Assembly (NCBI GenBank): GCA_023484515.1
Contig: JAMDAY010000028.1
Location: 2,544-66,543 of the forward strand
Direction of reading: 5' to 3'
DNA length: 64,000 nucleotides
Source: Patescibacteria group bacterium
Lineage (GTDB): Bacteria; Patescibacteriota; Doudnabacteria; UBA920
The translations under genes and the position numbers were made by a program. Positions 20,575 to 47,390 of the stretch are shown one piece after another. The notes under the pieces were generated by a model. The model made no database searches. It was given only the letters and a program-made list of their open reading frames with translations, and was not told the origin of the DNA. Numbering within the stretch: position 1 is the stretch's first letter; every line of letters starts with the position of its first letter.

Positions 20575-20919
20575 ATGAAAATAGAAAGATTCGAGGATAT
20601 TATTTCTTGGCAGAAAGGTATTGACCTTGCTATTATTGTTTATGGTGTTCTAAAAAGTAATAGGGATTTAAGTTTTAAAGATCAAATCCAAAGGGCAGTG
20701 GTAAGTATTTCAAACAACATTGCGGAAGGGTATGAAAGAAAAAGCAATAAGGAACTTGCACAATTTTTATATATTGCCAAGGGTTCTGCTGGAGAAGTCA
20801 GGTCCATGGTCCATATGGCTTTGAGGTTAAAATACATTACCCCATCTCAATTTGACGATATCTATCAAAGATGTTTGGAAATTTGTCGGCTACTTTCAGG
20901 TTTTATAAAAACTTTATAG
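20575..20919 (+). CDS. four-helix-bundle protein (23S rRNA IVS-protein / Avd-like, TIGR02436-type)
   Basis: ...AVVSISNNIAEGYERKSNKELAQFLYIAKGSAGEVRS... matches the family signature. 114 aa. Confidence 0.75.
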   Translation: MKIERFEDIISWQKGIDLAIIVYGVLKSNRDLSFKDQIQRAVVSISNNIAEGYERKSNKELAQFLYIAKGSAGEVRSMVHMALRLKYITPSQFDDIYQRCLEICRLLSGFIKTL

Positions 20920-20925
20920 ATTAGA

Positions 20926-20962
20926 AACTTGATAAACTTGACGAACTTGAAACTTGATAACT
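20926..20962. repeat. right inverted-repeat arm (AACTTG units), reverse complement of 20528-20573
   Basis: aaacttgataaacttgacgaacttgaaacttgataac. Confidence 0.7.
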
Positions 20963-20965
20963 TTT

Positions 20966-21268
20966 ATGGTTTTATACATTGACACAACTGATTTTGGCAA
21001 GATAACGTTTGCCGCAACGGACGGGAAAAAATTGTGGAAAAAATCCTGCAAAATTGACCCGCATAAATCGCATGAGACTTTGGGATGTCTGGAAAAATTT
21101 TTCAAGGCAGGAAAGTTTAGCCGTAGTCAGGTCAAAAAAATTGTGGTCAACAAAGGGCCGGGCAGTTATACAGGAACCAGGATTGGGGTAACAATTGCCC
21201 AGGCTTTGGGTTTTGCCTGGGGCGTGCCGGTTAAGTTTTTGCCCAAGGACAAGATGCCTGCCTTGTAA
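20966..21268 (+). CDS. tsaB: TsaB (YeaZ)-like N-terminal fragment, truncated after ~100 aa
   Basis: MVLYIDTTDF...GPGSYTGTRIGVTIAQALGFAWGVPV matches the TsaB N-domain. The ORF stops early and repeat-rich DNA follows. Confidence 0.55.
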   Translation: MVLYIDTTDFGKITFAATDGKKLWKKSCKIDPHKSHETLGCLEKFFKAGKFSRSQVKKIVVNKGPGSYTGTRIGVTIAQALGFAWGVPVKFLPKDKMPAL

Positions 21269-21526: not shown

Positions 21527-21719
21527 CTGTCTCCTTTGAACACCACAACACGTGTTGTGGTGTTCCCGCCATATAGGCCAGGCGGGTCTGTAGTTGCCTG
21601 ATTCATCAGGCTCTTTGCAAAGCTGAGTGAACTAAGCGACTACAGCTTAAGGGGGCAAGGCTTAAGGTTTATTGGAGGTTTTTTAAGGTTCTTTTCCCTA
21701 TGGCATTGCGTCCCCTTGG

Positions 21720-21889
21720 TGTCATTGCGAGGCACGTCGCTCGCGAACGACGTGCCGAGGAGCCAGGGCTTTAACTGGGCCGCGAAGCAATCTATCATAA
21801 GCACAAGAAAAAGATTGCTTCGCTCGGATGCACTCGCGATGACACGCGGGATAGATTGCTTCGCTCGGATGCACTCGCTCGCAATGACA
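21720..21889. mobile_element. MITE-like element with TGTCATTGCGAG terminal inverted repeats (copy 1, 170 bp)
   Basis: TIR tgtcattgcgag at 21720 and ctcgcaatgaca at 21878. The internal blocks agggctttaactgggccgcgaagcaatct and ttgcttcgctcggatgcactcg are shared with the copy at 40425-40662. Confidence 0.65.
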
Positions 21890-21989
21890 CCGCGCTTTAT
21901 GCCAGTAATGACACCGCATTTTGCATGCCCATTGCAAGCCAGGTACCAGGCGGCACTGTGGCAAGGGGAGTTAATTACAAATTATCCTT

Positions 21990-22046
21990 TGTAGGGGCTG
22001 CCCTTTGGGCGCCCGAACTTGCGGGCAGCTAAAGCTTGCCCCTACA
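21990..22046. repeat. REP-like GTAG-headed palindrome (intergenic copy)
   Basis: tgtaggggctgccctttgggcgcccgaacttgcgggcagctaaagcttgcccctaca. Confidence 0.8.
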
Positions 22047-22170
22047 TTCTTTATGGGTTTGTTGCCTGCTTTAGGGGGCAAGGTTTCCAAGTGTTCCGGT
22101 GTAACATTAAAATATGCGGAATAAGCAGCTTAATGAATTGGGCAACTGCAAGCTTAAGGAGGCTTTGCGC

Positions 22171-22206
22171 CTGTCCTTGTAGGGACAGGTCTAGACCTGT
22201 CCTTAC
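22171..22206. repeat. partial REP-like element containing the tgtaggg head and the gacaggtctagacctgtcc palindrome
   Basis: The same inner palindrome occurs in the valS-embedded copy at 48074-48131. Confidence 0.6.
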
Positions 22207-22665
22207 GTCCTTGACATCAATGACCAGCTTGGCAATGGCTTTATCCGGGACATTCTTGGGCCTGTTCCTACTGTCCGTGATATCTGTGATCAGTGATCTG
22301 CGCCTTGAACCGAAGACCTTCAGGCCAGCTGGAACAGAGGGTTTATCCGTAATCCGTGTTTATCTGTCTGCCTTGATCCGTGTTAATCTGTTTGCAGTCT
22401 AACACCGGTTTAGCCTTGACAAATGGCTGTTTTTTTGCTAATATATATATAGAAAAAGTATCGGATAGCCAATAGGCAATAGGCAAGCCAAAACTAGCTT
22501 GCTTAAACAAGCCTAAATAGGCTAGAGTGAAACAAAAAACTACAGAATATATGCGGATTAATACGCTGATTTAACGCTGAAAAATTACGGCGCGAATCAG
22601 TGTAAATTGGATATTTATATTCTATAGTAGTTAAAGAAACAAATATCAAATAACAATTTAATCCC

Positions 22666-22908
22666 TTGTCTTCCCAAGAACAGTTGTCAATGCTGACTTC
22701 GGGCAAGCTGATTTCCATCAGCCAGGCCGCGACTTTAACTCCGTATAGTGCGGAGTATTTGAGTTTATTGGCCCGCAAGGGGAGACTGAATGCGATAAAA
22801 ATTTCCCGCGACTGGCTGACTACGGAAGAGGCGGTTAAAAATTACGTGGCCAAGCAGGTCAAGAAGCACGAAAAAATGCTCAAGATGCTGGAAGGAGGAA
22901 AAATATGA
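22666..22908 (+). CDS. excisionase-like helix-turn-helix DNA-binding protein (paralog A)
   Basis: TPYSAEYLSLLARKGRLNAIKISRDWLTTEEAVKNYVAKQVKKHEKML is nearly identical to the 31916-32146 product. HTH_17-like pattern. Its stop overlaps the start of the giant gene (ATGA). Confidence 0.6.
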   Translation: MSSQEQLSMLTSGKLISISQAATLTPYSAEYLSLLARKGRLNAIKISRDWLTTEEAVKNYVAKQVKKHEKMLKMLEGGKI

Positions 22909-25900
22909 AATCCTTCCTGCAAAAAATTGGGAATGCCTTGGGGTTAAGGCAGCAGCCCGTGGTGATTAACGCGAAGTTTATTACTCCCCAAAGCCTGAAA
23001 GAAAATTCCAAACCGGCAGCTCCGGCCTTTGCGGCTGCGCCCCGCGTCCCGGAGTCCCGGATCCCGGACAAAAACAAAACTGCGCCGCTTGCCCGCCAAA
23101 CCGCCAAGAGCGCGCCTATGGCCAAATGGATCGGAAAAATTCCCAGGCCGAAATTCGTTTTGGCCGTGCCCAAGCCGCACCGCGCTTTGGCAGTTGTGCT
23201 GGCCAAAACGTCAGTCGTTCCGTTTAAGCTGCCGCAGTTGCCCGCGCCCCTAAAAAACAAAATGCTGGCTAAATTGCCTAACCGCGTTTTGGCGGGTTTG
23301 GCTGTGCTGCTGTTTGCCTTAAGCATGTCCTTGTGGGGCGCGGCCAAAGAGATACAGATAAAGCATGCGGTTCCCGCAGGGGTCAACTCCGGAATCCTGA
23401 AATCTTTGTCGTTCAGTATCCCTAATAATTTTTCAAACAACGGGCATTCAGGCAGCTCTGTTTCAGCGGCTGGCCAGCGCATTTATCAGCGCCCATTTGG
23501 CAAATACGAAAATTTGCCGGCCAAAGAAAAAGCAGTATTTTATCCAAGCAACGACAACCTTCATTTGCTGTCGTTGTTTACCGGCGGCATTGGCAACTGG
23601 TTCGGATATTTTGGAGGATTGCGGGCAGAGTATGCGCCGTATAAATACGCAGCGCAAAATAATTCAAAAGGCGAAGCGGTTAGCCGCCATGCGGATTTAG
23701 TAAAAGGCAGGGATTCTGAATTTGTTGGCCAGGCGGGCGGGGCCCCTAAGCTGCCAGTTGGGACAATAAATTTTTCAGCCAGGCTGCAAGCGGTTAAAAT
23801 TTCCGCCCGCACGCTGGCTTTGGTTTGGACGGATTTTCTGTTCCGCCATCCGGCCATAAATTTTGCAAGCCTGCAAAGCGCGGCCCAAAATTGGAAGACG
23901 GACATTAGCCGGTCGCTTAAGACAGGCGTTGCCGCTTTTGCCGGCGTGGGCAAATCGGACGCGCAAATTTGGGGGCAAGCTTTAACCTGGCAAATAAGCG
24001 TCCGGAAAAATTTGCCGGAAGCGGCAGACAGCCAACGCGTTGCCAGCCAGGATACAATTGCACGTTATTTTGTAACATTGCAAAACTTTAACTTAAAGGC
24101 GAAGCAGTCTTTTGCTGAAATAAAGACTGCCGCGGTTTCATATTTTAAAGTTAAAGATATTAATTTCCGCAATGACGCGGCAAGCGGCCGCGTCCAAAAG
24201 GGAGAAGTCTTGGGCGCGGTAGACTATCCCGCCGGCCAGGAATCAAAATTTATAAAAATTTTCACCAATGGAGTAGGGGAGTGGTTTAAAATTTTGCCCG
24301 ATGTAAAATATTCGGAGGCTAATCAACAGCAAAAAGCCGGCAAAGGCATGGTGCTGGGCTTGTCGTCCGCCAAGGAGAACAATTCTTCTACCGTGGGCAG
24401 TATTTCCTTAAATCGGCTGGCGCAAAAGAGCTTGCAAGGACTTAATAATGCGGCAGCCTGGGAAACAAGGCAGTTGGTAAAGTTGGCAAATTTTGGAAAA
24501 GTCGCAGCCAAAGGGGTGGGAAAAGTTTGGGGGCAGGTTGCCGGCGCGGGAAAAGGCGCCTGGAACCGCGCGGTGGCAACGGCAGGACATATTTTGCAGA
24601 CCGGCAGCGAAGAAAATGTTTTGCCTTTAATTACGCATGACAAGTTTGGGCAAATGGTGGGGAACAATGGGCCGGCAGGCAATGGCGAAGCCGCGAACTT
24701 AAATTCCCAAACGCCGCAAACCGGTCCAGAGGCCGGGCATTCGGCAGCCGCCATTTCCCAACCGGCAGGCGCGCCCAACGCGGGCAGCGGCAGGCCGGCG
24801 TCTGCAGCCGTTTTAACGGCCGTTGACCCCATGTTTGTTAACCGGCTAATTGACGCGCGGCTTAACCAGTATTTGGCCGAAGGCAAATTTAAAGGCGAAA
24901 AGGGCGAAAAAGGAGACAAGGGAGACAAGGGGGACACCGGCTTAATTACTAACCCCGCAACCAACCAGTCTTCCGCGGTTGTGGGCGGCTATCCCATTGT
25001 CACTTATGTTCCTCCGGTTCCCGCCCAGGGATTTGCCGGCACTTCTTTGGCGGGCTTTGGCAATTTGTCCGCTGCAATTTTGTCAGTCTCTGACCAGACA
25101 AGCTTAAACAATCTTACTGTTACCGGCAATGTCAGTTTGGCTACCACGACCGTTACCAGTTTGACTATTGCCAGGATAAATCCGCAATTCACCGCCGGCT
25201 CTGTTGTTTTTCAAGGATCTTCCGGCCTGGCCCAGGACAACAGCAACTTCTTTTACGATGAAACTAACCATAGATTGGGAATTGGCACCAGCACTCCGTT
25301 AACCGTGTTGGAAATTGACGCTACGGACGCTTTGCGCATTCCGGTGGGCAACACCGCGCAGAGGCCGGCCGTGGCTTTAACCGGCCAAATCCGCTATAAC
25401 CTGACCACGCACCAGTTTGAGGGTTACGGCAACAATAGCGTCTGGCAGGGTTTGGGCGGGGTTATTGATGCCGACCAGGACACTTACATTACGGCGGACA
25501 CGAGCAATGCCGACGAAGATACCTTGCGCCTGTTCACTTTGGGCAACGAGCGCTTGACCGTGACCAGCGCCGGCAATGTTGGCATTGGCACGACCACGCC
25601 GGGCTATGCCTTAACCGTGGTTGGCGACGGTTACTTTACGGGCAATGTTAACATTGGCCAAAACTTGACCGTAAATGACGGGGCGGTAATCATTGGCAGC
25701 GCTACCACGACCAGCCTGACCGTAAATGCGGCCATTGCTTCCAATTTAATTCCCGATGGCAACAATACCAGAAGCTTGGGGAGCGCTTCCTATTTCTGGA
25801 GCGATTTATACGTGGGCGAGTTGCATGCCAACTTGATTTCCGACGCCTCTTCCACTTTAAGCGGCACGCTTTCCGACAGCTTTACCATTAACAGCGACAA

Positions 25901-28900
25901 TGCCAGCGCCGATGCCGAAAACGCGGATTTAATCTTCTTCCGCGGCGCCTCCGGGGCAGACCCTAACGCCTTAATTTCCTGGAATTCTACAGCCAAGCGC
26001 TTTGACTTAAACCAGCCAACTTTTATCCAGAACGCCTCGCCTTCCACCACAACCATTCCAACTTTGCTGCTTCAAGGCTCTGTCAGCCAAACCGCGGATA
26101 TTTTCCTCGCAGCCTCTTCCTCCGGCACTTCCTTGTTTAATATCACTTCCTCCGGCAACGTCGGGATAGGGACGACGGCACCAAGCCAGTTGTTGACGGT
26201 TGGTAATAACAATCAGTTTACGGTTAGTAGTTCTGGTGCAGTTGTGGCCGCTGGGCAGATTCAAGCCAATTCACTTTATACTCTCGGAAATGTGTATGGG
26301 TACGGTTTCCAAAGTGTTAATGGACCCTCGCAATCTTACATTGACATGACAAGTTATAGTAAAGCTATAGCATTTTCAGCCAGTTCCACAGAGGTAATGA
26401 GGTTAACAGGAAACGGCAATATCGGCATCGGCACCACATCGCCAGCGAACAAGCTAACGGTGGTTGATGCGGATACAACCTCCCCGGCGGGGATAGGTTC
26501 GATTAAGCTTACCCAGAATATTTCAAATCCTTACGAATTATTTATGGGTGTCAACAGCACCTATGACAACAACGAAGGAAACGGAGCCGCGTATATACAG
26601 GCGCAGCATTCGGGGGTGAATGTTTCCGGTCTGCTGCTTAACCCGAACGGAGGCCGCGTGGGCATTGGGGTGCTTCATCCTCAATCCGCGTTGGATGTCA
26701 ATGGCGGAATGAGTATTGGTTCTTACGCCGGAACCAACACGGCTCCATCGAATGGATTAATAGTAAGCGGCAATGTGGGCATCGGGACAACAAGTCCGGC
26801 GGCGAAGTTGGATGTCGTTACTTCCAGTAATAATGAAATGAGGTTTTTGGACCAGATGACCTATGGTACTGCAAGCAGCAGCAATGCCACCGGATTGTTT
26901 CTGACCACTCCAACTTATAATAACGGCGGCGGACCGTCTATTGCTTTCGGCCGCGGCACAGGAATCAATGCTACGGAAATGTGGGAGACCGGCATAGACT
27001 ATCGCGGCGGCGGCAATTTGTGGAGCGGCGGCGGAGCGGGCGCATATATTTTAGCCTATCAATGGGAACCCAACGGCCAGTCGGCGGACCGCATCGCCGT
27101 CAAACCTTACGGCCAAACTTCTATTGGTCTGCCGGATGCCGGCTTGAGCCAGTTTACTGCCCAGTTAGAAATTAGAAATCAAATAGCTAGTTTGCCAGTG
27201 GAGATTCTTTACCCCAATTTGACCCAAAGCGGCGATGTCTGGCAGGTACGCACTACGAACAATGGTTCGTCGGCCATTTCTATACCTTCCGGCGCTGTGG
27301 ACGCTTCCAACGCTAACGCTATCGTTCCAATTTTAAGATTAATGCATCCCTCCGCTGCTAGCGGCGTCGGTAATGGCGCAGCCATTGATTTTGTCGCCTC
27401 TTCCGATGGCACGACCATTGGATCAGAAATCGCCGGGACGCGCGCGGCTTCAGGGGGCTGGGGTAACTTGCAGTTTTTGACTCGCAACGGTTCGGGTCTT
27501 TTGGAACGCATGAGGATAGATAATAACGGCAACGTCGGGATTGGGACAACAGGTCCCACATCGGCATTAGAGGTTACGTCTGGCTCTGGAAATGCTTCTG
27601 TAAAATTAAGTTCAAATGCTTATGGCGGAGTAATAAGTACTGCCTCGGGCAGCAATAGCGGATACTTGTATCTAACGCCAGTCGGACGGGTGGTTAGCTT
27701 GTACGATAATACCAACGCTTATAAATTGAATATTTATAACGGCAGTAATGCTGAGTTTTCGTTTGATTCAAACGGCAATAGCTGGTTAAACGCAACCACC
27801 GGCAACGTGGGCATCGGGACGACGAGTCCTGGGGCAAAGTTGCATGTATATGGGACAGATTATACCGGTGCCATTTTTCAAAACACCAATCCTGCCAATT
27901 TTGGGTATAACCAGTTTACTAACGCTGGTGCGGCCACTTCGTATCAATACTGGTTTGGTAATACGTATAGTTCTGCAACGAATAGGTATGTTCCATCATC
28001 ATTCTTGCTCGACGCAGCAGGGACAGGCGGTTTAGGTTTGGCCGCTTCAAATGCTTCTGGGGCTATTCGCTTTTATACTGGTGGGGATAATGAAAGGGTC
28101 AGGATAGATAATAACGGCAACGTCGGGATTGGGACGACGAGCCCAAGCACTAAGTTAGAAGTTTGGGATGGCAATGATGGTTCTGGCGGAGTTATTACTG
28201 CCAAGGACGGCGGAGCTATATTAATGGCCGCTGATAGTAGCTATCCGTTGCAAGTTGGAAATAACACCGGAGGCGCCAATAATATTAGATTCCGTATCGG
28301 ATCGGATGGCACTATTGATTGGAACAACAATAACAGTGCTATTCCCACGATAACTTTGCCGACAAACAAATATCTGGCAGTATCGGGTGGAAATGGAATG
28401 ACAATAGCTGGCAACGTCGGAATTGGGACGATAAATCCGGCGGAATTGCTTGATGTGGCAGGTAACATCCGGCTGACAAACTTTAGGACCCATAATGTTA
28501 CCAGGACTTTAAGTTCTGCTATTAACGGGGTGGTAGATATTGGCACCTTCAACTTCACGTTGGGCGCGGGGGAGTTGGACGTAACCATAGTCACGCAAGG
28601 CACAGGCTACTCTATTGCTAAAACTTACAGAATCCCGGTCAGATATGATGCTACAAGCAATGCTTGGAAAATTGTATTGCCTAATTACGATTCCGGAGTA
28701 TATTCTGGAAATAATTTCCAACTGGAGGTTAAAGTCGGCACTACGAATGCCTCTTTGCGTATTCGCTCGTTGACTGCCAATTCAGCGACCGCTTATATTA
28801 CCATCCAGCAAAATGGCTTGAATAGCGACAGTTTTACCGAATCCACAGCCACTTCCACCGAGGCGGCTATTACCCAGACTTATACTTACACCCCGGTTGC

Positions 28901-30632
28901 ATTTTATAACGGTAATCTGGGAGTGCAAGTTGCCGCGCCAGATGCTGAATTGCAGGTAAATTCAATGCCTGTAAACAAGGGTTCTTATTCATTGTCAAAC
29001 TGGAACAGTACCGGCTCCAGAGCCGCTGCGTTTTTTGCCACGCCGAATAACAACGGGGGCAACAGCTTGGCCAGCGCGGAACCGGCTTTGATCTTGGGCA
29101 GGGAGGGTGTAACAGGCCAATCTTATGCCAATTTTGCGGAATTTAAACTGGCACATTACGAAGTTTCGGGCACAGACGCCCGTACCAGGATGGATATTGC
29201 TTTGACACACGGAGCGGGCGATGCAGCCGGAACTAACGTTATGAGCTTGCTAAGCAACGGCAACGTCGGGATTGGCACTACCTCTCCTTCCCAAAAGCTG
29301 GATGTCTGGGGCAATTTGAACGTCGCTACGTCAACTACGCCTGCATTGTTTGTGAACACAGCCACGGGAATGGTGGGAATTGGAACCGCGACGCCTGGGC
29401 ATCTTATTACACTTTCCGGCGGCGCTTATAGCGACGGCGCGACTTGGGAAAACGCTTCGGACGTAAACTTAAAGGAAAACTTTATTGACCTTGACCCGGC
29501 GGAAATTTTAACCAAGATAAATTCCTTAAAAGTCAGCCAGTGGAATTATAAGACGGACAAGAGCATCTCCTATATTGGCCCGACCGCCCAGGACTTTTAT
29601 TCCACATTTAACGCCTTGCGCCCCAGCAGCTCGCCGACCTCCATTTCCACGGTGGACCCGGCAGGCGTTGCATTGTTGGGAATACAGGCTTTGGACAATA
29701 AATTCAACAATTTACAATTGACGATCAGTAATTTACAGGGAAGCCTGATGAATCAGGCAACTACGACTAATCTTGCTGTTTATAACCCTTCCAACTTCTC
29801 GGGCGACAGCGTGGGCCAGGCCAAAATTTTGTCCGGCGCGACCAGCACTTTGGTTTCCTTCCAAAACGCCTACCAATACCAGCCCATAGTTACCCTAACT
29901 CCGGCCGGCCCTTACACCGCCCGCTACTGGGTGGAAAACGCCAACGCAAACGGCTTTACCGTAGTTTTGGAACACGCGGAAGAATACGACGTTACCTTTA
30001 ACTGGCATTCGTTTGCCAGCCCCGAAGCGAAATTAACGGTCAGCGACGGCACCACGCTGGACATTGTTTTGGTTTTGCCGCCGGCCGACCCGCCGCCTCC
30101 GGCCGCGCCTTTGGTGGTGCAGCCTGCGGCGGGGGACGCTACAGGCGGCTCTGCCGGTAGCAATCTTACAGACACTAATCCTCCTGCCGGAGGCGCAGAT
30201 GGTTCTTCCGGCGACAACCTTTCTCCGGACGACTCTTCTAACAACAGCCTTTCCGGCGACAACCTTCCCGCAGGGGATCTCTCAGGAAATACTTCCGGCA
30301 ATAATCCTCCCGCAGACAGCCTTTCCGGCGGTAATCTTACAGACATTAATCCTCCGGCAGGGGATGGAACAGGGGAAGGCGATCCGTCCGCTGATGGGTC
30401 TGCTTCTTCCGGCCAGCAAGGCCAGGTTTCCGGCGCAACCACAATTTCGGGCGATTCCACTTCGGCAAGCACTGAAACTGCATCCGGCGGCGACAGTTCT
30501 GCCGCCGGCAGCGATTCGTTGTCCGGCAGCGGTTCGGGCCCTACAGATACCTCTGCCGGTGTAGATGCCTCCACCGGCGCCACAGACGCATCCGCCGGCA
30601 CTACGGACGCCTCTTCCGGAAGTACACCGTAA
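22905..30632 (+). CDS. giant cell-surface tail-fibre-like protein: TM anchor, collagen-like GEKGEKGDKGDKGDTG, ~11 NVGIGTT repeats, Peptidase-S74 intramolecular chaperone domain, P/S/G/D-rich tail
   Basis: GGAGG RBS upstream. Repeated GNVGIGTTSP..KL.V units. The C-terminal SDVNLKENFIDLDPAEIL...YIGPTAQDF matches the S74 autoprocessing-domain motifs (SDxxLKxNI, GxxAQ). Confidence 0.85.
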   Translation: MKSFLQKIGNALGLRQQPVVINAKFITPQSLKENSKPAAPAFAAAPRVPESRIPDKNKTAPLARQTAKSAPMAKWIGKIPRPKFVLAVPKPHRALAVVLAKTSVVPFKLPQLPAPLKNKMLAKLPNRVLAGLAVLLFALSMSLWGAAKEIQIKHAVPAGVNSGILKSLSFSIPNNFSNNGHSGSSVSAAGQRIYQRPFGKYENLPAKEKAVFYPSNDNLHLLSLFTGGIGNWFGYFGGLRAEYAPYKYAAQNNSKGEAVSRHADLVKGRDSEFVGQAGGAPKLPVGTINFSARLQAVKISARTLALVWTDFLFRHPAINFASLQSAAQNWKTDISRSLKTGVAAFAGVGKSDAQIWGQALTWQISVRKNLPEAADSQRVASQDTIARYFVTLQNFNLKAKQSFAEIKTAAVSYFKVKDINFRNDAASGRVQKGEVLGAVDYPAGQESKFIKIFTNGVGEWFKILPDVKYSEANQQQKAGKGMVLGLSSAKENNSSTVGSISLNRLAQKSLQGLNNAAAWETRQLVKLANFGKVAAKGVGKVWGQVAGAGKGAWNRAVATAGHILQTGSEENVLPLITHDKFGQMVGNNGPAGNGEAANLNSQTPQTGPEAGHSAAAISQPAGAPNAGSGRPASAAVLTAVDPMFVNRLIDARLNQYLAEGKFKGEKGEKGDKGDKGDTGLITNPATNQSSAVVGGYPIVTYVPPVPAQGFAGTSLAGFGNLSAAILSVSDQTSLNNLTVTGNVSLATTTVTSLTIARINPQFTAGSVVFQGSSGLAQDNSNFFYDETNHRLGIGTSTPLTVLEIDATDALRIPVGNTAQRPAVALTGQIRYNLTTHQFEGYGNNSVWQGLGGVIDADQDTYITADTSNADEDTLRLFTLGNERLTVTSAGNVGIGTTTPGYALTVVGDGYFTGNVNIGQNLTVNDGAVIIGSATTTSLTVNAAIASNLIPDGNNTRSLGSASYFWSDLYVGELHANLISDASSTLSGTLSDSFTINSDNASADAENADLIFFRGASGADPNALISWNSTAKRFDLNQPTFIQNASPSTTTIPTLLLQGSVSQTADIFLAASSSGTSLFNITSSGNVGIGTTAPSQLLTVGNNNQFTVSSSGAVVAAGQIQANSLYTLGNVYGYGFQSVNGPSQSYIDMTSYSKAIAFSASSTEVMRLTGNGNIGIGTTSPANKLTVVDADTTSPAGIGSIKLTQNISNPYELFMGVNSTYDNNEGNGAAYIQAQHSGVNVSGLLLNPNGGRVGIGVLHPQSALDVNGGMSIGSYAGTNTAPSNGLIVSGNVGIGTTSPAAKLDVVTSSNNEMRFLDQMTYGTASSSNATGLFLTTPTYNNGGGPSIAFGRGTGINATEMWETGIDYRGGGNLWSGGGAGAYILAYQWEPNGQSADRIAVKPYGQTSIGLPDAGLSQFTAQLEIRNQIASLPVEILYPNLTQSGDVWQVRTTNNGSSAISIPSGAVDASNANAIVPILRLMHPSAASGVGNGAAIDFVASSDGTTIGSEIAGTRAASGGWGNLQFLTRNGSGLLERMRIDNNGNVGIGTTGPTSALEVTSGSGNASVKLSSNAYGGVISTASGSNSGYLYLTPVGRVVSLYDNTNAYKLNIYNGSNAEFSFDSNGNSWLNATTGNVGIGTTSPGAKLHVYGTDYTGAIFQNTNPANFGYNQFTNAGAATSYQYWFGNTYSSATNRYVPSSFLLDAAGTGGLGLAASNASGAIRFYTGGDNERVRIDNNGNVGIGTTSPSTKLEVWDGNDGSGGVITAKDGGAILMAADSSYPLQVGNNTGGANNIRFRIGSDGTIDWNNNNSAIPTITLPTNKYLAVSGGNGMTIAGNVGIGTINPAELLDVAGNIRLTNFRTHNVTRTLSSAINGVVDIGTFNFTLGAGELDVTIVTQGTGYSIAKTYRIPVRYDATSNAWKIVLPNYDSGVYSGNNFQLEVKVGTTNASLRIRSLTANSATAYITIQQNGLNSDSFTESTATSTEAAITQTYTYTPVAFYNGNLGVQVAAPDAELQVNSMPVNKGSYSLSNWNSTGSRAAAFFATPNNNGGNSLASAEPALILGREGVTGQSYANFAEFKLAHYEVSGTDARTRMDIALTHGAGDAAGTNVMSLLSNGNVGIGTTSPSQKLDVWGNLNVATSTTPALFVNTATGMVGIGTATPGHLITLSGGAYSDGATWENASDVNLKENFIDLDPAEILTKINSLKVSQWNYKTDKSISYIGPTAQDFYSTFNALRPSSSPTSISTVDPAGVALLGIQALDNKFNNLQLTISNLQGSLMNQATTTNLAVYNPSNFSGDSVGQAKILSGATSTLVSFQNAYQYQPIVTLTPAGPYTARYWVENANANGFTVVLEHAEEYDVTFNWHSFASPEAKLTVSDGTTLDIVLVLPPADPPPPAAPLVVQPAAGDATGGSAGSNLTDTNPPAGGADGSSGDNLSPDDSSNNSLSGDNLPAGDLSGNTSGNNPPADSLSGGNLTDINPPAGDGTGEGDPSADGSASSGQQGQVSGATTISGDSTSASTETASGGDSSAAGSDSLSGSGSGPTDTSAGVDASTGATDASAGTTDASSGSTP

Positions 30633-30715
30633 GAAATAGGACATATAAGACAAATAAGACAAATAGGACATATAAGACCTATAGGACTAATAGGACTAAT
30701 AAAACCAATAAATTT
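30633..30715. repeat. 9-bp minisatellite (ATAGGACAA / ATAAGACAA units) upstream of the 208-aa Avd-like gene
   Basis: Tandem units read directly. Translates to SYL/SYM runs on the minus strand. Confidence 0.8.
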
Positions 30716-31342
30716 ATGACAGAATTAATCGCCAAGCACGGCGGCTACAAAAACTTAAAATCTTTCCAGGCGGCGGAAATTGTTTACGACTACACCTTTG
30801 AATTCATTAACCGCTATGTCCAATTTTACAAAGACAAGGAGCAAATGGAAGGCGCGGCGCGCGGCGGCAAGCAGAACATCGGCGAAGGCAGCCAGACCGG
30901 CGGCACCTCCAGGCAAAGCGAAATTAGGCTGACAGATGTCGCCCGCGCCTCGCTGGAAGAACTGAAGCTGGATTACGAAGATTTTTTGCGCAAACAAAGC
31001 CTGCCGCAATGGGGCAAAAACGACCCGCGCGCGCTAGCCGTGCGCAAGCTGGCATACGAAAAGAATAGGACATATGGGACTTATAGGACATATATGTCAG
31101 AGCCAGAAACAGCGGCCAACTGCGCCTTGTGCTTAATTAACCAGGCAACTTATTTACTGGACAAACAACTGGCGGCGTTAGACAAGCAGTTAGGGCGGGA
31201 GGAGGACTTTAAAGAGCGTTACAGGCAAGTCCGCAAGGAACAAATATTCGGAGCAAAAGACGACTATGATGAATTTTTAAAGCAGTTTGGCAAGAAACGG
31301 CTGGAAAACGGGAGGGTGGTGCCGCTGGATGCGCCGGATTGA
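30716..31342 (+). CDS. extended four-helix-bundle (Avd-like) family protein
   Basis: QNIGEGSQ...VARASLEELKLDYEDFL parallels the NIAEGxxR...IAKGSxxEL motifs of TIGR02436. Repeat units also lie inside the ORF at 31060-31095 (RTYGTYRTYM). Confidence 0.45.
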   Translation: MTELIAKHGGYKNLKSFQAAEIVYDYTFEFINRYVQFYKDKEQMEGAARGGKQNIGEGSQTGGTSRQSEIRLTDVARASLEELKLDYEDFLRKQSLPQWGKNDPRALAVRKLAYEKNRTYGTYRTYMSEPETAANCALCLINQATYLLDKQLAALDKQLGREEDFKERYRQVRKEQIFGAKDDYDEFLKQFGKKRLENGRVVPLDAPD

Positions 31343-31560
31343 ACAAGGTGAATAGGACAAATAGGACGCATAGGACAGATAGGGCAGAGGGGCAAGGCCT
31401 ATGCGACCAGTAAGACGAATAGGACGTATAAGAACAATAAGACAAATAGGACATATAGGACATATAAGACAAATAGGACAAATAGGACAAATAGGACATA
31501 TAAGTCCTATAAGACCTATAAGTCCTATAAAGACCTATAACCTATAAAACCAAAACAGCC
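31343..31560. repeat. 9-bp minisatellite array, forward units then inverted units (self-palindromic)
   Basis: ataggacaa... followed by gtcctataagacctataagtcctat. Confidence 0.8.
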
Positions 31561-31915
31561 AAGCCTAAAACCACTCCCCTGCCTTAAATAAGAGCTAAAA
31601 AGTATCGGATAAACAATATTTAATCGTTTAAACTAACATAGTTAGATTGACCAATATATATTTGGATAAACAATATAAGATTGGATAAACTATACAAGAT
31701 AGTTTAAATGATATATAATTGTTTTATCAATATAAGATCGTCAAAACAAACTAATATAGTTTAAAAAACCTTATATTGGTTAAACAGCTAAATATCGTTT
31801 AAAAAATAATAAATCGTTTAAACAATCAAAGTAGCTCTAGACGATACTAATTGCAAATAATCCCCAATAATTTTCCACAAATAAACAAACAGCAGTCACA
31901 AAATAAAGAAACAAA

Positions 31916-32146
31916 ATGGCCTCCCCTAACTTACAATTAATTTCCGGCGCGCTTATCTCCATGCATCAGGCAGCAAAAATGACCCCGTATTCGGCGGAGT
32001 ATTTAAGCTTGCTCGCGCGCAAGGGGAGGCTAAAGGCGGTAAAAATCGGCAGGGACTGGCTGACCAATGAAGAGGCAATTAAGGAATACGTGCAAAAGCA
32101 GGTCAAAAAGCACGAAAAAATGCTGGCGGCATTGGGAAAACTATAA
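31916..32146 (+). CDS. excisionase-like helix-turn-helix DNA-binding protein (paralog B)
   Basis: TPYSAEYLSLLARKGRLKAVKIGRDWLTNEEAIKEYVQKQVKKHEKML. Paralog of 22666-22908. Confidence 0.6.
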   Translation: MASPNLQLISGALISMHQAAKMTPYSAEYLSLLARKGRLKAVKIGRDWLTNEEAIKEYVQKQVKKHEKMLAALGKL

Positions 32147-32149
32147 AAA

Positions 32150-32197
32150 ACGGATTTACACGGATACCGTCAAACGGATGCTCACGGATCACGGATA
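32150..32197. repeat. array of 5 ACGGAT hexamers (left flank of the GxxExxY cassette)
   Basis: cggatttacacggataccgtcaaacggatgctcacggatcacggata. Confidence 0.75.
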
Positions 32198-32217: not shown

Positions 32218-32654
32218 ATGGACAGTAAAGAAAAAGGGAAATTATTAGAAGAAGGATTGTGTTCAAATATTATTCGGGCGTTTTATGATGTTGCAAATAA
32301 ATATGGCAGCGGTTTAAAGGAAATTGTTTACCAAAAAGCCTTGGTTGAAATTTTGGAAAAAATGGGGCTAAAAACTGAACAGCAAAAAAGATAAGCATTT
32401 ATTCCCTTGATTCAGGGAAAACACTGGGAACATATGTGCCGGATTTAATAGTAGAAGGCAAGGTTGTTGTAGAAATTAAGGCTACCGATTATACAATTGG
32501 CCGCAATATTAATCAACAAAGGTCTTATTTAAAAGCCAGTAAGTATGAAATTGGATACCTGGTAAACTTTGGAACCCCTAGATTATTTTTTAAGAGATCA
32601 ATTTATACCAACGACCGCAAACCGTTTATTATATTATTAACCAATCATCCGTGA
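32218..32654 (+). pseudogene. GxxExxY-family protein gene split by a frameshift in an A6 run (32384-32389)
   Basis: The N-terminal ORF 32218-32394 contains GLKEIVY. The C-terminal ORF has DLIVEGKVVVEIKA...YLVNFG. Adding one A restores a single ~145-aa ORF. Confidence 0.55.
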
Positions 32655-32693
32655 TCCGTGGAAATCCGTAAGCAGTATCCGTGTTTATCCGTT
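32646..32693. repeat. array of 5 ATCCGT hexamers (right flank, inverted relative to 32150-32197)
   Basis: catccgtgatccgtggaaatccgtaagcagtatccgtgtttatccgttt. Confidence 0.75.
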
Positions 32694-33935
32694 TAAATAT
32701 GTCATTTATCGCCAGAAACAAATTCCTAAACAAATATTTGCCCTTAATTCTTTCCGCCATATTGCTTGTTACCGCGTATGGGGCTTATTTTGTCGCACAA
32801 AAATCCAAAACCGCAGAGTCTGCCTGGTTTACTTCTTCTTCCACTGCCGGTACCTGGAACTACCGGCAAAGAATTGTCATTGACCACACCAAGGTCGGGT
32901 AATCGTTAAAACAAAATTTAACCGATTTTCCGGTTTTGGTTTCCACGACCAATGTGCTGTTTAAGTCCGTAAACAACGGGGGACATGTGGGGTTAGACAG
33001 CGGCTACGACATTGTCTTTACCTCCGCGGACGGCGCCACCAAACTAGCGCACGAAATAGAAAAATACGACCCCGCAACCGGCCAGCTAATTGCCTGGGTT
33101 AAAACCAATTTATCTTCGTCTTCCGACACCGTCTTGTATCTTTACTACGGCAACTCTTCCGCCCCCGACATGCAAACCGTAGATCCGGTTAAGACTGCGG
33201 TCTGGGACAGCAACTATAAAGGCGTCTGGCATCTTGGAGAAACCGGCAGGGGCATCAGGCGATTATAAAGACAGCACAACAAATAATAGTAATAGCATCA
33301 GTACTGCTAGCCAGCCTTCCGCGGCTGCCGGCAAAATAGGTAACGCGCAAAATTTTAACAATTCCTACATCCAATTTGACGGTTCAGGCTCCTTAAATAT
33401 TTATTCCAGCCCCATAACCATTGAGGCCTGGATTAAGCCGACAACGCTTGACGCCACGCTTAGGGCGGTAGTTGATAAAGGGAGTGCTACTTATTTAATG
33501 GGGGTCTCCAGTTATCCAAGCACGGGCCATGCCAATACTTTCAGTATTAGCGGAAGCGGGGGGAGTGGTAATTATGTCGCACCTCAAAATTCTATAAGTA
33601 CGGGGGTATGGTATCATTTAGTTGTACAAGGTATAAATAATCCAAAATGGTATGCCAACGGAGCGTATTTAGGGTACTACGATACCCTTATGACCTTGAT
33701 TTCTAATACCGATGTTCTTTCCATTGGCGATAACTCCTTGCATACCCGCAAGTTTAGCGGATTAATTGAGGAAGTCCGCATTTCCAACATAGCCCGCACC
33801 CCCGAATGGATTAAAACCGAATACAACAACCAGTCCGCGCCCTCTGCTTTTTACGCGATTTCCGCGTCCAACGCTTCCTCCCGCCCCGCTGACAAGCCCC
33901 TCATCAAAACCCGCTCCGGCGTGAAGTTCCGCTAA
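32681..33935 (+). pseudogene. DUF2341 + LamG/concanavalin-like surface protein gene, disrupted by an in-frame TAA (32903) and a frameshift (~33240)
   Basis: Signal/TM present. WNYRQRIVIDHTKVG*...FPVLVSTT...DIVFTSADG...YYGN...VWHL matches DUF2341. The third ORF has GKIGNAQNFNNSYIQFDGS...EAWIKP (LamG). Confidence 0.55.
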
Positions 33936-33948
33936 TGAAAACAAAAAA

Positions 33949-33985
33949 CAATGGGCACCATTGTGCTGCACAATGGTGCCCATTG
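33949..33985. repeat. REP hairpin caatgggcaccattgtg-ctg-cacaatggtgcccattg, immediately upstream of RAYT-1
   Basis: 17-bp perfect arms. Confidence 0.8.
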
Positions 33986-33998
33986 TAACCAGCTTAAT

Positions 33999-34652
33999 AT
34001 GAATAACCGGGATTATAAATTTTTTGCGCCCAATACAATCCATCATGTATACAACCGCGGAAATGGTAAAATGGATATTTTTAGGGACGGACAGGATTTT
34101 GCAAATCTGATTAAAAGAATAGCTTTAACTTTAGGCAAGGCGAAAGAGACCGCAACGGTGCCCATTGGCTGCCAATGGGCACCGTTGCGTATTGCGCCTT
34201 TTCCAAAGAACGCTTTTACCATACTGTGTTATTGCCTTATGCCTAACCATTTTCACTTCCTTATCAGGCAGAATACTGAAATTGCGATAAGTGATTTTAT
34301 TTCAAAACTTTGCAGTAGCTATGGTAAATTTTTTAATAAAAAATACGAACACGCTGGCGGCTTGTTCCAAGATCAGTTTAAAGCTGTGCGCGTTGAAAAT
34401 GATTCCCAGTTACTGTGGGCATCCGCCTACATCCACAACAACCCCAAAACCGCCGGACTTGTCCAAAAGTTGGAAGATTATGCCTGGAGCAGTTATTTGG
34501 ATTATATCGGCAAGCGGCAGGGAACTTTGTGCGACAAGGAATTTATTTTAAAGATGATCGGCGGCGCGGAAAAGTATAAAAGATTTACGGAAGGCGGCTT
34601 TGAAAAAATCAAGGGGAGAAAAGAATTGGAACATTTGCTGCTGGATAATTAA
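33999..34652 (+). CDS. REP-associated tyrosine transposase (RAYT, IS200/Y1 HuH family), copy 1
   Basis: HHVYNRGN and YCLMPNHFHFLI (HuH) motifs. The start was chosen at MNNRDYK by alignment to copy 2. An internal REP hairpin at 34151-34189 is translated as TATVPIGCQWAPLRIAP. Confidence 0.8.
   Translation: MNNRDYKFFAPNTIHHVYNRGNGKMDIFRDGQDFANLIKRIALTLGKAKETATVPIGCQWAPLRIAPFPKNAFTILCYCLMPNHFHFLIRQNTEIAISDFISKLCSSYGKFFNKKYEHAGGLFQDQFKAVRVENDSQLLWASAYIHNNPKTAGLVQKLEDYAWSSYLDYIGKRQGTLCDKEFILKMIGGAEKYKRFTEGGFEKIKGRKELEHLLLDN
34151..34189. repeat. REP hairpin cgcaacggtgcccattgg-ctg-ccaatgggcaccgttgcg, inside the RAYT-1 ORF
   Basis: 18-bp perfect arms. Shares the ggtgcccattg core with the upstream hairpin. 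Confidence 0.8.
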
Positions 34653-45483: not shown

Positions 45484-46713
45484 ATGAATAAACTCCAAAT
45501 TTCCCAACGCGCGCAAAAGATAATTGCTTCTCCCATAAGGAAGTTTTTGCCATTGATGCTGGAAGCGGAAAAACGGGGGATTAAAATATATAAGATCAAC
45601 GTGGGCGACCCGGATTTATTGCCACCGCCGGAATTTTACCGGGAAATAAAACGGCATTTGGCCGGCAATTTGGGTTATGCTCCTTCTCCCGGCATTGCCA
45701 GCCATGTGGCAGCCTGGCAGGAATATTACAGTCAAATGGGCGTAAATTTGCAGCCGGGAAATATTATCCCCACGCAGGGCGGCGCAGAAGCTATTTTACT
45801 GGCCATGCAGGCCGTGGCAGACCAGGGCGACGAGGTGGTAGTGTTTGAGCCTTTGTATGTCAGTTACCGGTCCTTTGCCGCCATGGCCGGCATTAAGCTG
45901 GTGCCCGTAACGTTGTCTATTGCCAACAACTTTAGCCTGCCTTCCGTTTCAGTTTTGAAAAATAAAATCACTAGCAGAACAAAGGCAATTGTAATTGTGA
46001 ATCCTGACAACCCCACAGGCAAGCTATGGAGCAAAAAAGAACTGGACCAGATAATCCAGGTTGCCAAAAAACATAACCTCTATATTATTTCCGACGAAAC
46101 TTACCGCGAAATTAGGTTTGACGGCAAAAAATTTTCCTGTCTTTTGACGCGCAAGGATGCCGCGGAAAATATAATATTATGCGACAGCGTGTCTAAGCGT
46201 TTTTCCATGCCCGGCGCGCGCATTGGCTGCGTGGCCAGTTTTAACAAAGAGATAATGTCAAGCGTGCTCAAGTTTGCCCAGGCCAGGCTTTCCGCCGGAA
46301 CTTTGGAACAGTTGGCCCTAGTTCCGCTGATAAAAAATAGCCGCTCCTATACCCGGAAAGTCCAAAAAGAATATTTGCGGCGGCGCAACGCGGTGGCAGC
46401 GGGCTTAAAAAATATTCCCGGCGCCGTATTCCGGCCGGCCCAGGGCGCATTTTACCAGGCCGTAAAACTGCCGGTTAAGTCCGCTGAGGATTTCGTAAAA
46501 TTTATGATCAGCGAATTCCAATACAAAGGCGCTACCGTCATGGTCACGCCCATGAAAGATTTCTACCTGACGCTGGGTTTAGGCGAAAATGAAGTCCGCA
46601 TAGCTTATGTGCTGAATGTTAAAGATTTGTCCGCAGCCATGGATGTTTTGCACAGAGGACTAATAGCATATAAAACGAGTCCCTTGAAGAGACCCTTCAA
46701 GGGGACCACATGA
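45484..46713 (+). CDS. class I/II PLP-dependent aminotransferase
   Basis: SKRFSMPGARIG (PLP-lysine region). About 409 aa. The last codons run into the REP hairpin at 46681-46704. Confidence 0.75.
   Translation: MNKLQISQRAQKIIASPIRKFLPLMLEAEKRGIKIYKINVGDPDLLPPPEFYREIKRHLAGNLGYAPSPGIASHVAAWQEYYSQMGVNLQPGNIIPTQGGAEAILLAMQAVADQGDEVVVFEPLYVSYRSFAAMAGIKLVPVTLSIANNFSLPSVSVLKNKITSRTKAIVIVNPDNPTGKLWSKKELDQIIQVAKKHNLYIISDETYREIRFDGKKFSCLLTRKDAAENIILCDSVSKRFSMPGARIGCVASFNKEIMSSVLKFAQARLSAGTLEQLALVPLIKNSRSYTRKVQKEYLRRRNAVAAGLKNIPGAVFRPAQGAFYQAVKLPVKSAEDFVKFMISEFQYKGATVMVTPMKDFYLTLGLGENEVRIAYVLNVKDLSAAMDVLHRGLIAYKTSPLKRPFKGTT
46681..46704. repeat. REP hairpin cccttgaagagacccttcaagggg (upstream flank of RAYT-2, within the aminotransferase 3' end)
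   Basis: Arms cccttgaag / cttcaaggg. Confidence 0.8.
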
Positions 46714-47390
46714 AATATAGAGATTACAAGGTGTTTGCACCGGGAGGATATTATCATGTATATAATCGCGGTGTAGCTAAAACTGATATCTTTTTAGACG
46801 ATGACGACCGCAAATTTTTTCTATTTCGCCTTAAAGAATATTTGTTTCCCTTGAAGGGTCTCTTCAAGGGAAAAAGGCAGAATTTACCTGGAGGGGCGGC
46901 AATTGTGGCCGAAACCCATACCCCTTATAAAAGAAAAATGTTGCCTCCAGACAGTTTTTCCTTGCTTTGTTATTGCCTTATGCCTAACCACTTCCATTTT
47001 CTTATTAGGCAGGAAGGTGTGTTGGAGGTCCGGAAGCTGTTGGCTAAAGTTTGCACCAGTTATTCTAAATTTTTTAACCAAAAATATGGAAGAGTTGGAA
47101 GCTTATTTCAGGATGCCTTTAAAGCCATTTCTGTAGAAAATGATCCGCAACTCCTTTGGGTTTCATCATACATCCATAATAATCCAAAAACAGCTAACCT
47201 TGTCGATAACCTAACTGATTATCCTTGGAGCAGCTATTTGGATTATATCGGCAAGCGGCAGGGAACTTTGTGCGACAAGGAATTTATTTTAAAGATGATC
47301 GGGGGCGCGGAAAAGTATAAAAGATTTGCGGAAGACAGCTTTGCGAAAATAAAGGAAAGGAAAGATTGTGAAGGATTATTTTTAGATTAA
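46710..47390 (+). CDS. REP-associated tyrosine transposase (RAYT), copy 2
   Basis: YHVYNRG and YCLMPNHFHFLI motifs. The 3' ~100 bp are about 95% identical in DNA to RAYT-1. An internal REP copy at 46848-46870 encodes LFPLKGLFKGK. Confidence 0.8.
   Translation: MKYRDYKVFAPGGYYHVYNRGVAKTDIFLDDDDRKFFLFRLKEYLFPLKGLFKGKRQNLPGGAAIVAETHTPYKRKMLPPDSFSLLCYCLMPNHFHFLIRQEGVLEVRKLLAKVCTSYSKFFNQKYGRVGSLFQDAFKAISVENDPQLLWVSSYIHNNPKTANLVDNLTDYPWSSYLDYIGKRQGTLCDKEFILKMIGGAEKYKRFAEDSFAKIKERKDCEGLFLD
46848..46870. repeat. REP hairpin cccttgaagggtctcttcaaggg inside the RAYT-2 ORF
   Basis: Same arms as the flanking copies. Confidence 0.8.

Follow-up and report, generated by a model that had tools for sequence, protein, structure and literature searches.

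What links two small paralogous helix-turn-helix (HTH) genes, both preceded by the same short string of DNA, to the very large surface-protein gene that lies between them? The question is raised by a 64,000-nucleotide stretch (the window) of contig JAMDAY010000028.1 from a genome of the Patescibacteria lineage Doudnabacteria (assembly GCA_023484515.1), in which the first HTH gene (HTH1) is followed by a gene for a fibre-like giant protein, a direct-repeat array and the second HTH gene (HTH2). The original prediction, made from the letters alone, had described a duplicated regulator plus operator module in which each copy heads a surface-protein locus, possibly under phase or stress control. 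The sequence anatomy of the locus, its conservation in other genomes, the co-occurrence of the motif with the HTH domain and the predicted fold were directly established in this analysis. The explanation that we regard as probable, if far from certain, is that the HTH proteins bind GTATCGGWTA (W, A or T), that the HTH1-fibre operon is negatively autoregulated, that the array cooperatively controls HTH2, and that the two nodes are linked.

The shared motif and its association with the HTH domain

Both paralogous open reading frames (ORFs) proved to be real, and tblastn identified them as the sole copies of this HTH in the window. Their identity, initially given as about 70%, is 77% over 66 aa and 68% over the whole alignment, and the recognition helix SAEYLSLLARKGRL is the same in both. 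The N-terminus of HTH1 agrees with the family consensus MS.EEKQ. The string reported upstream of both genes (AAAAGTATCGGATA; shared 15-mer AAAAAGTATCGGATA) has exactly two copies in the window, at positions 22454 and 31598, with about 0.5 matches to AAAAGTATCGGATA expected by chance even if two mismatches are permitted. When the window was scanned with a position weight matrix (PWM) made from 21 sites, only two strong sites were found (22456 and 31600), both at HTH genes, and the copy ahead of HTH1 was the top match (26 bits). This search for a regulon detected no other strong site in the window, and the motif thus looks like a local dedicated element rather than part of a global regulon.

Ahead of HTH1, the site directly follows a promoter that scored 10 of 12 in a consensus scan and carries the TG extension; the site begins 8 nt past the -10 box and would cover approximately positions +1 to +18 of the transcript, the start of which was itself inferred from the promoter prediction. 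The upstream DNA of the two genes had been described as matching and as packed with repeats in both cases. Alignment of the two regions confirmed the 15-mer but revealed little else in common, namely a short A-rich box near the start codons. The HTH1 upstream region contains one promoter, one site and one hairpin but no array, whereas the repeats ahead of HTH2 form a regular array of 12 units of 19 bp rather than scattered words.

An alignment of the HTH was scanned against 185,579 species genomes, yielding 258 relatives, of which the best 79 loci were analysed (individual loci are designated by L numbers). In the 18 split loci, an HTH gene of approximately 83 aa overlaps the next ORF by 4 or 1 nt in at least 16 cases, and the partner ORFs encode 290 to >3300 aa, many of them cut off by the contig end. 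Another 19 Patescibacteria loci have the HTH as the N-terminus of a 560-2380-aa protein (fused loci). Fic proteins of approximately 305 aa carry the same subfamily as their C-terminus; they occur in archaea, DPANN among them, and in Chloroflexota, Spirochaetota and other groups. When 1.84 billion cluster representatives were searched with a profile, 5711 proteins were returned at E ≤ 1e-3; the top matches include many giants, reaching 6890 aa, in which the HTH is N-terminal and often present as two to three domains in tandem. Further HTH copies found apart from surface genes and from the motif had been named as the observation that would speak against the module; instead, the 18 coupled and 19 fused loci were found, with the motif present.

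In 20 loci (L001-L019 and L022), a 14-mer version of the motif with 0-2 mismatches lies 7-8 nt past TTGACA-N17-TGCTAtAaT, a promoter that could be aligned in 18 related loci, and the rest of the leader has diverged; the site occupies the same promoter position in L080, also with 0-2 mismatches. Overall, in approximately 30 independent Patescibacteria loci the motif lies 8 nt past a near-consensus TTGACA-17-TGnTAtAAT promoter, and in every case an HTH gene follows, which is either coupled to the gene of a giant single-pass membrane protein or fused with it. The association was also recovered in the reverse direction, by a scan of metagenome contigs that was blind to proteins and used only the promoter and a half-motif (TTGACA-N14-16-TGCTA-N10-14-AAAGTATCGG). 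Among its 15 matches, 12 have the full motif, with 0-2 mismatches and at the corresponding promoter position, and all 12 lie 67-309 nt ahead of an HTH gene; the other three are high in GC, lack the rest of the motif and correspond in number approximately to that estimated by chance. Compared with the remainder of the loci, the interval from -300 to +20 of the gene that carries the HTH is enriched in the core TATCGG[AT]TA. For split genes the enrichment is 68-fold (p 2e-12), for fused genes it is 270-fold (15 of 19 loci, p 3e-39), and for Fic-HTH genes, including those of archaea, it is 167-fold (29 of 32 loci, p 7e-80).

The geometry of the sites varies with the architecture of the protein. 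Split HTH-A genes (the HTH1 type) have a single site, single-HTH fusions a divergent pair 13 bp apart, and HTH-B genes (the HTH2 type) a direct array with a period of 19; direct pairs 12 bp apart occur in L035, which has two tandem HTH domains, and in L034, in which one was detected. Fic-HTH genes of archaea and several bacterial phyla (L028, L029, L031, L037, L045-L047, L050, L056, L064, L077 and L078) are preceded by convergent TATCGGATA / TATCCGATA sites with a spacing of exactly 23 bp, of which the one nearer the gene is usually 21-22 nt before the start codon; this is a rigid operator-like geometry across domains of life. Of the arguments for recognition of this sequence by the domain on duplex DNA, such covariation of site geometry with protein architecture is the strongest. 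The fixed post-promoter position of the string in approximately 30 loci and the enrichment of its core upstream also support the idea of a duplicated regulator with its operator.

The HTH1 leader and the 19-bp array

Downstream of the site, the HTH1 leader contains a hairpin with the invariant loop CAAAAnnA (Table 1), and in the 18 leaders compared, the stem differs across species with the loop remaining constant. In these leaders, 82% of the hairpin cells are paired (57% when shuffled), the covariation score is 0.70 (0.26 when shuffled, with 0 of 500 shuffles as high and slid registers giving ≤0.17), and all nine base pairs show double-sided changes; these statistics were obtained from a loop-anchored alignment in which 16 of the 18 rows had been selected for at least six of nine pairs. 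Each locus has the loop motif once, and the motif is confined to these leaders. RNAalifold found nothing in the leaders because the 3' arm of the hairpin shifts its register. The A-rich box just upstream of the start codon is kept as GAAACAAAAAyAAAAACACAATTTAAT-ATG in 18 loci, and a short version (AAAGAAACAAA) precedes HTH2 at 31905-31915.

These features could be read in terms of RNA, with the 5' sequence and the hairpin governing mRNA stability, translation or attenuation, and with the HTH proteins not acting through the 15-mer. The motif does lie at the predicted 5' end of the transcript, 18 leaders have the hairpin, with its invariant loop and covarying stem, downstream of the motif, and the conserved leader of the HTH genes lacks a Shine-Dalgarno sequence, in contrast to the giant gene, which has GGAGGA 8 nt before its ATG. 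However, ahead of the fused and Fic-HTH genes of bacteria and archaea, the 9-mer is found in both orientations, in inverted pairs and at varied distances, and this variation fits recognition of duplex DNA, not of an RNA 5' end. The 19-bp arrays also lie mostly upstream of any plausible HTH2 transcript start, and no Rfam family matches the HTH1 leader. We give this explanation a low probability; the hairpin may well add a layer of control at the RNA level without replacing binding of the motif by the HTH proteins.

Some further features of the leader and its surroundings were observed. A 'ghost' of the pre-start box (GTGAAACAAAAAACTACAGAATATATG) is located in the middle of the HTH1 leader (22527-22553; also at about 3100-3130 in L001) and is followed by approximately 110 extra nt, and an insertion that duplicated this box seems to have made the leader longer; long leaders are also present in L003, L004 and L080. 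Short word repeats (ATCCGTG / CACGGAT) are found at 22341-22394, just upstream of the HTH1 promoter, and at 32148-32196, just past HTH2 and ahead of the split PDDEXK_3 gene. The two ORFs just upstream of the HTH1 promoter (21716-21994 and 22019-22402) have no Pfam match.

In the array ahead of HTH2, with its repeats at 31600-31827, unit 1 is the consensus site AAAAAGTATCGGATAAAC and the other 11 units are degenerate (ATCGKWTAAAC; K, G or T). The lag-19 autocorrelation of the array is 0.60, compared with a maximum of 0.46 across 2000 shuffles, and the array encloses a candidate promoter (TATACA-17-TATAAT, 31691-31719). The same 19-bp period was found 3' of the giant gene in three other genomes: L001 (6 units), L080 (6 units) and L002 (4-5 units). 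The conserved order is promoter and site, HTH-A, giant gene, 19-bp array opened by a consensus site, and HTH-B. In L001, a Doudnabacteria metagenome-assembled genome, the array abuts the start codon of HTH-B, which is followed by a convergent gene; in L080, the array precedes a truncated HTH-B; and in L002 (17879-18300), an array without HTH-B is followed by a promoter-like TTGACT...TATAAT, approximately 200 nt of non-coding sequence and a tRNA. The possibility that the array is a replication origin was rejected, as the GC skew has no inflection there.

The role assigned to HTH2 as the head of a DUF2341-LamG locus did not survive. A split PDDEXK_3 pseudogene intervenes, and ORF73, DUF2341 and LamG are pieces of one broken gene, representing either a pseudogene or an assembly error. 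These genes are decayed, are not coupled to HTH2 and are not kept beside HTH-B in other genomes. HTH2 is monocistronic, and only HTH1 heads a surface-protein locus. As far as gene order reveals, the conserved partner of the HTH2-type copy is the upstream giant gene with the 19-bp array, not the decayed DUF2341-LamG gene downstream.

A 208-aa ORF (30716-31342) with weak likeness to the 23S rRNA intervening-sequence protein, a four-helix bundle, forms an insert that parts the giant gene from the array; in L001, L002 and L080, the array lies approximately 50-340 nt past the giant stop codon. The ORF is flanked, and in part overlapped, by 9-bp tandem repeats of ATAGGACAn (30634-30711, 31065-31094 and 31342-31551), the orientation of which reverses near 31500 (to GTCCTAT). 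Directly past the broken LamG gene is an IS200-like Y1 transposase gene (33951-34652, 233 aa), which has a paralog at 46710-47390 (226 aa).

Table 1. Coordinates and properties of the features of the HTH1-fibre-HTH2 locus (positions refer to the window)
Feature	Position	Strand	Description
Promoter of HTH1-giant operon	22416..22444	+	TTGACA, 17-nt spacer, TG-extended -10 TGCTAATAT
Operator-like site	22453..22471	+	AAAAAGTATCGGATAGCCA
Leader hairpin	22480..22505	+	TAGGCAAGC[CAAAACTA]GCTTGCTTA; minimum free energy (MFE) fold z = -5.5
A-rich box	22634..22665	+	AAAGAAACAAA...ACAATTTAAT; just 5' of HTH1 start codon; no Shine-Dalgarno
HTH1 (HTH-A)	22666..22908	+	80-aa winged-helix protein; start TTG; stop/next start overlap ATGA
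Giant surface fibre	22905..30632	+	2575 aa; ATGA overlap with HTH1
Direct-repeat array	31597..31827	+	12 units, exact 19-bp period; unit ~wwwTATCGKWTAAACww
Inverted site	31835..31845	-	ATCGTCTAGAG; closes array; weak match of uncertain significance
HTH2 (HTH-B)	31916..32146	+	76-aa paralog of HTH1
Split PDDEXK_3 (GxxExxY-type) pseudogene	32218-32654		58-aa and 72-aa pieces; between HTH2 and DUF2341-LamG
ORF73 + DUF2341 + LamG	32681-33935		One broken gene of ~420 aa, transmembrane-anchored; in-frame TAA 32900-32902, frameshift near 33240

Predicted fold of the HTH proteins and architecture of the giant fibre

An AlphaFold2 (AF2) model of HTH2, with a predicted local distance difference test (pLDDT) score of 86, contains strands at residues 13-15, 41-44 and 47-51 and helices at 16-22, 27-36 and 52-75, i.e. 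a beta-alpha-alpha-beta-beta winged helix followed by a 24-residue C-terminal helix. Its best solved neighbours in Foldseek are BldC, RdfS, Pukovnik Xis, TraN and RacA (approximately 2 Å root-mean-square deviation, probability 0.97-0.99), BldC (PDB 6ama) matching with a probability of 0.99 and a deviation of 2.0 Å. Both the model and these matches place the protein in the HTH_17/Xis-MerR winged-helix fold. A profile search of PDB sequences found no homologue, with no BldC, Xis or MerR match at E ≤ 1. The HTH_17-like pattern ascribed to both proteins is borne out by score for HTH2 (28.7 bits against Pfam HTH_17, PF12728, with a gathering cut-off of 27 bits) but not for HTH1, which scored 19.1 bits; the fused and Fic-HTH relatives scored 17-25 bits. 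HTH1 and HTH2 are proposed to be small winged-helix proteins of the Xis/BldC (HTH_17) type, consisting of the DNA-binding domain alone.

Among known systems, BldC of Streptomyces, a MerR-like protein, offers a close parallel. BldC binds variable numbers of direct repeats in head-to-tail fashion (PMC5859096), filling them cooperatively to regulate transcription, and the same is proposed for the HTH proteins of this locus. Like HTH1 and HTH2 (76-80 aa), it is small and hardly more than a winged HTH, without the coiled-coil and effector domains of MerR, although the proteins described here have the C-terminal helix in addition. Sequence similarity between them is undetectable. The BldC site is AATTnnnnC, repeated at about one helical turn, whereas GTATCGGWTA occurs here singly or, in the arrays, at 19 bp; direct pairs 12 bp apart are seen in L034 and L035. 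Furthermore, BldC is a global developmental regulator, whereas the sites found here are at the HTH protein's own locus only. The classical MerR arrangement (a palindromic operator in a 19-20-bp spacer between -35 and -10, and an effector domain) is absent: the spacer is 17 bp, the site is downstream of the -10 box and there is no effector domain. For the sister Fic architecture rather than the window genes, a parallel is provided by CccR, a Yersinia Fic toxin with a C-terminal HTH that was experimentally shown to repress its own promoter, as a dimer, via widely spaced inverted repeats (PMC9755527). In layout, these repeats mirror the convergent TATCGGATA pairs 23 bp apart upstream of the Fic-HTH genes, whose HTH belongs to the subfamily of the window.

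The original prediction had coupled the 80-aa gene to a tail-fibre-like ORF through an ATGA overlap, and this was verified. The encoded protein has a basic, proline-rich cytoplasmic tail of 127 residues, exactly one predicted transmembrane (TM) helix (aa 128-146), and an ectodomain with a collagen-like stretch, many GNVGIGTT repeats and a low-complexity C-terminus. It also contains a Peptidase_S74 (intramolecular-chaperone) domain (aa 2185-2235) and matches phage tail-fibre PHROGs, down to E 3.5e-36. The TM helix, the repeats, the chaperone domain and these matches identify it as a membrane-anchored, tail-fibre-like surface filament.

Such matches also invite the view that the locus is the remnant of a prophage or mobile element, in which the HTH would be an excisionase, the giant protein a tail fibre and the repeats arm-type sites. 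Excisionases, or recombination directionality factors (lambda and Pukovnik Xis, RdfS; HTH_17), share the fold and the Pfam/PHROG family with the HTH proteins, the PHROG excisionase matches having E values of about 1e-4, and Xis and RdfS are among the top fold matches. Xis proteins bind direct repeats cooperatively, forming filaments, and RdfS represses its own promoter (PMC11963761). In this case, however, the gene is chromosomal, is coupled to a giant protein with an N-terminal TM anchor, and has no partner integrase or att site. No integrase was found adjacent to it in the window or in the conserved neighbourhoods, and capsid and terminase genes are likewise absent beside the module, both in the window and in related loci. 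The recombinases closest to it are the IS200-like Y1 transposases and a serine recombinase 25 kb off, and the neighbours are housekeeping genes (Mur ligase, FemAB and rpoB/C). Only two weak relatives were found in 2.9 million viral contigs, as against 258 in cellular genomes. The prophage interpretation was thus rejected for the lack of phage genes and the near-absence of the subfamily from viral contigs, and we consider it very improbable.

The ectodomain of the giant fibre is homologous both to the split partners and to the HTH-fused giants of other genomes, and the split and fused forms therefore represent gene fission or fusion within one family. One N-terminal TM helix (aa 4-146) is present in 16 of the 18 split partners, none being predicted in L008 and L014. 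The order HTH, 100-400-aa linker, one TM helix and large ectodomain is found in 18 of the 19 fusions, with no TM helix predicted in L043. In topology, the fused relatives resemble the bitopic regulators ToxR, CadC and TcpP, in which a single TM helix connects a cytoplasmic DNA-binding domain at the N-terminus with an extracytoplasmic domain, and as in that type there are sites at their own promoters. They differ in that the DNA-binding domain is of the Xis/MerR and not the OmpR/PhoB type, and in that the ectodomain is a fibre of 700 to >6000 aa rather than a small sensor. In the window itself, the HTH and the TM protein are encoded by separate coupled genes.

This topology raises the possibility that the HTH anchors its own locus to the membrane-embedded giant protein, directly in the fused forms or via the cytoplasmic tail in the split forms, with the array acting as a multi-copy anchoring or partition site rather than a transcriptional operator. 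The domain order in 18 of 19 fusions would suit such a tether, as would the existence of thousands of such proteins, many with two to three tandem HTH domains; RacA (a chromosome anchor) and TubR (a centromere binder) are among the structural neighbours, and the arrays look like iteron or centromere repeats. An array together with the gene for its presumed binder is also what plasmid centromere and iteron modules present (ParR/TubR with parC/tubC, Rep with iterons). Against this, no ParA, ParM or TubZ-type NTPase gene and no Rep gene was found in the window, and there is no GC-skew switch at the array. Sites occur only in the promoter region of the gene itself, HTH-A of the split type lacks a membrane anchor, and the arrays occur in few genomes. 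A tether or centromere-like role is rated as improbable.

Elsewhere, the window encodes DNA polymerase I, UvrB, RuvA, FemAB, a Mur ligase, rpoB/rpoC, a LeuRS-type protein and TsaD. A second, strong 23S_rRNA_IVP gene (108 bits) stands beside a 104-aa TsaD-family fragment (20575-20919 and 20954-21268), 30 kb from the full-length tsaD (50587-51714, minus strand). A RhuM-Fic fusion protein without this HTH (3639-4652) and a large serine recombinase with Resolvase, Recombinase and Zn ribbon domains (57681-59015, minus strand) are not beside the module.

Proposed control of the locus

In the mechanism that we favour, HTH1 and HTH2 would recognise 5'-GTATCGG(A/T)TA(G/A)AC. At the fibre operon, a single high-affinity site would lie over the transcription start, directly 3' of a strong sigma-70-type promoter, and a protein bound there would block RNA polymerase. 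As translation of the 2575-aa fibre gene is coupled to that of HTH1, this would amount to negative autoregulation of the operon. Ahead of HTH2, the consensus unit 1 would serve as a 'nucleation' site from which the eleven weaker sites, spaced at the 19-bp period, would be filled cooperatively and head-to-tail, as with BldC and Xis, resulting in switch-like control of HTH2. The identical recognition helices imply that the two loci should cross-talk. That sister lineages fuse the same domain via a TM helix to a giant protein suggests that the regulator and the fibre work as a single functional unit. DNA binding, repression rather than activation, cooperativity and cross-regulation are all points that we infer from sequence.

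Several observations weigh against this mechanism. Most units of the array are weak matches, scoring <6 bits with the operator PWM, and the array was found in only four loci among those examined. As L002 has an array without HTH-B, the array may serve the 3' end of the giant gene and not the HTH2 promoter. Its 19-bp spacing is unlike the spacing of about one turn in BldC, and head-to-tail contacts between neighbouring sites are therefore not assured. The position of the operator depends on a consensus promoter prediction, and the HTH_17 score of HTH1 is under the Pfam cut-off. The covarying hairpin, as far as comparison of the leaders goes, shows that at least part of the conserved leader works at the RNA or single-strand level. 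Finally, HTH2 is nearer to HTH1 (68-77%) than to the HTH-B of L001 (62%), so that the two-paralog layout may have arisen more than once, by recurrent duplication, or have been homogenised.

Phase control, which had been suggested for the module, left no sign. Phase variation via a T-tract in the promoter spacer was considered and rejected, because this tract belongs to the extended -10 context, which is conserved. One related species, represented by four samples (L080-L083), has an A-tract in place of the T-tract, and its promoter does not differ between the samples.

A more far-reaching interpretation treats HTH and giant fibre as one signalling device, in which the DNA-binding domain would be held at the membrane, covalently or via the 127-aa tail, and the 19-bp array with the second paralog would form a memory or threshold element. 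The state or the co-translational insertion of a host-attachment fibre would thereby be read out at its own promoter. We regard this as unlikely.

The fold and the mode of action have precedents in Xis, BldC and the ToxR-like topology. Full-text literature searches with the motif string returned only primers, and those on Patescibacteria giant proteins or HTH_17 found nothing relevant. In the literature searched, there was no description of the motif or of its association with this HTH subfamily in both bacteria and archaea, no report of coupling or fusion to giant fibre proteins in Patescibacteria, and no report of a conserved 19-bp array with a second paralog.

According to a 2024 perspective, the regulation of the cell cycle in Patescibacteria is virtually unknown and the mechanisms of cell differentiation are completely unknown (PMC11665869). 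The giant surface proteins of these bacteria are prime candidates for host attachment, and the locus represents a first testable candidate for the control of huge surface proteins in ultrasmall Patescibacteria. It offers parts that can be tested directly, namely a precisely defined and very widespread cis-element (GTATCGG(A/T)TA), a cognate small protein and a predicted promoter, together with a family of thousands of HTH-tethered giant proteins. It also defines a probable DNA specificity for an HTH_17 subfamily that is common to bacteria and archaea and includes the Fic-HTH enzymes. If the signalling interpretation were true, the locus would represent a new, membrane-coupled class of one-component system that is specific to ultrasmall bacteria with an episymbiotic life.

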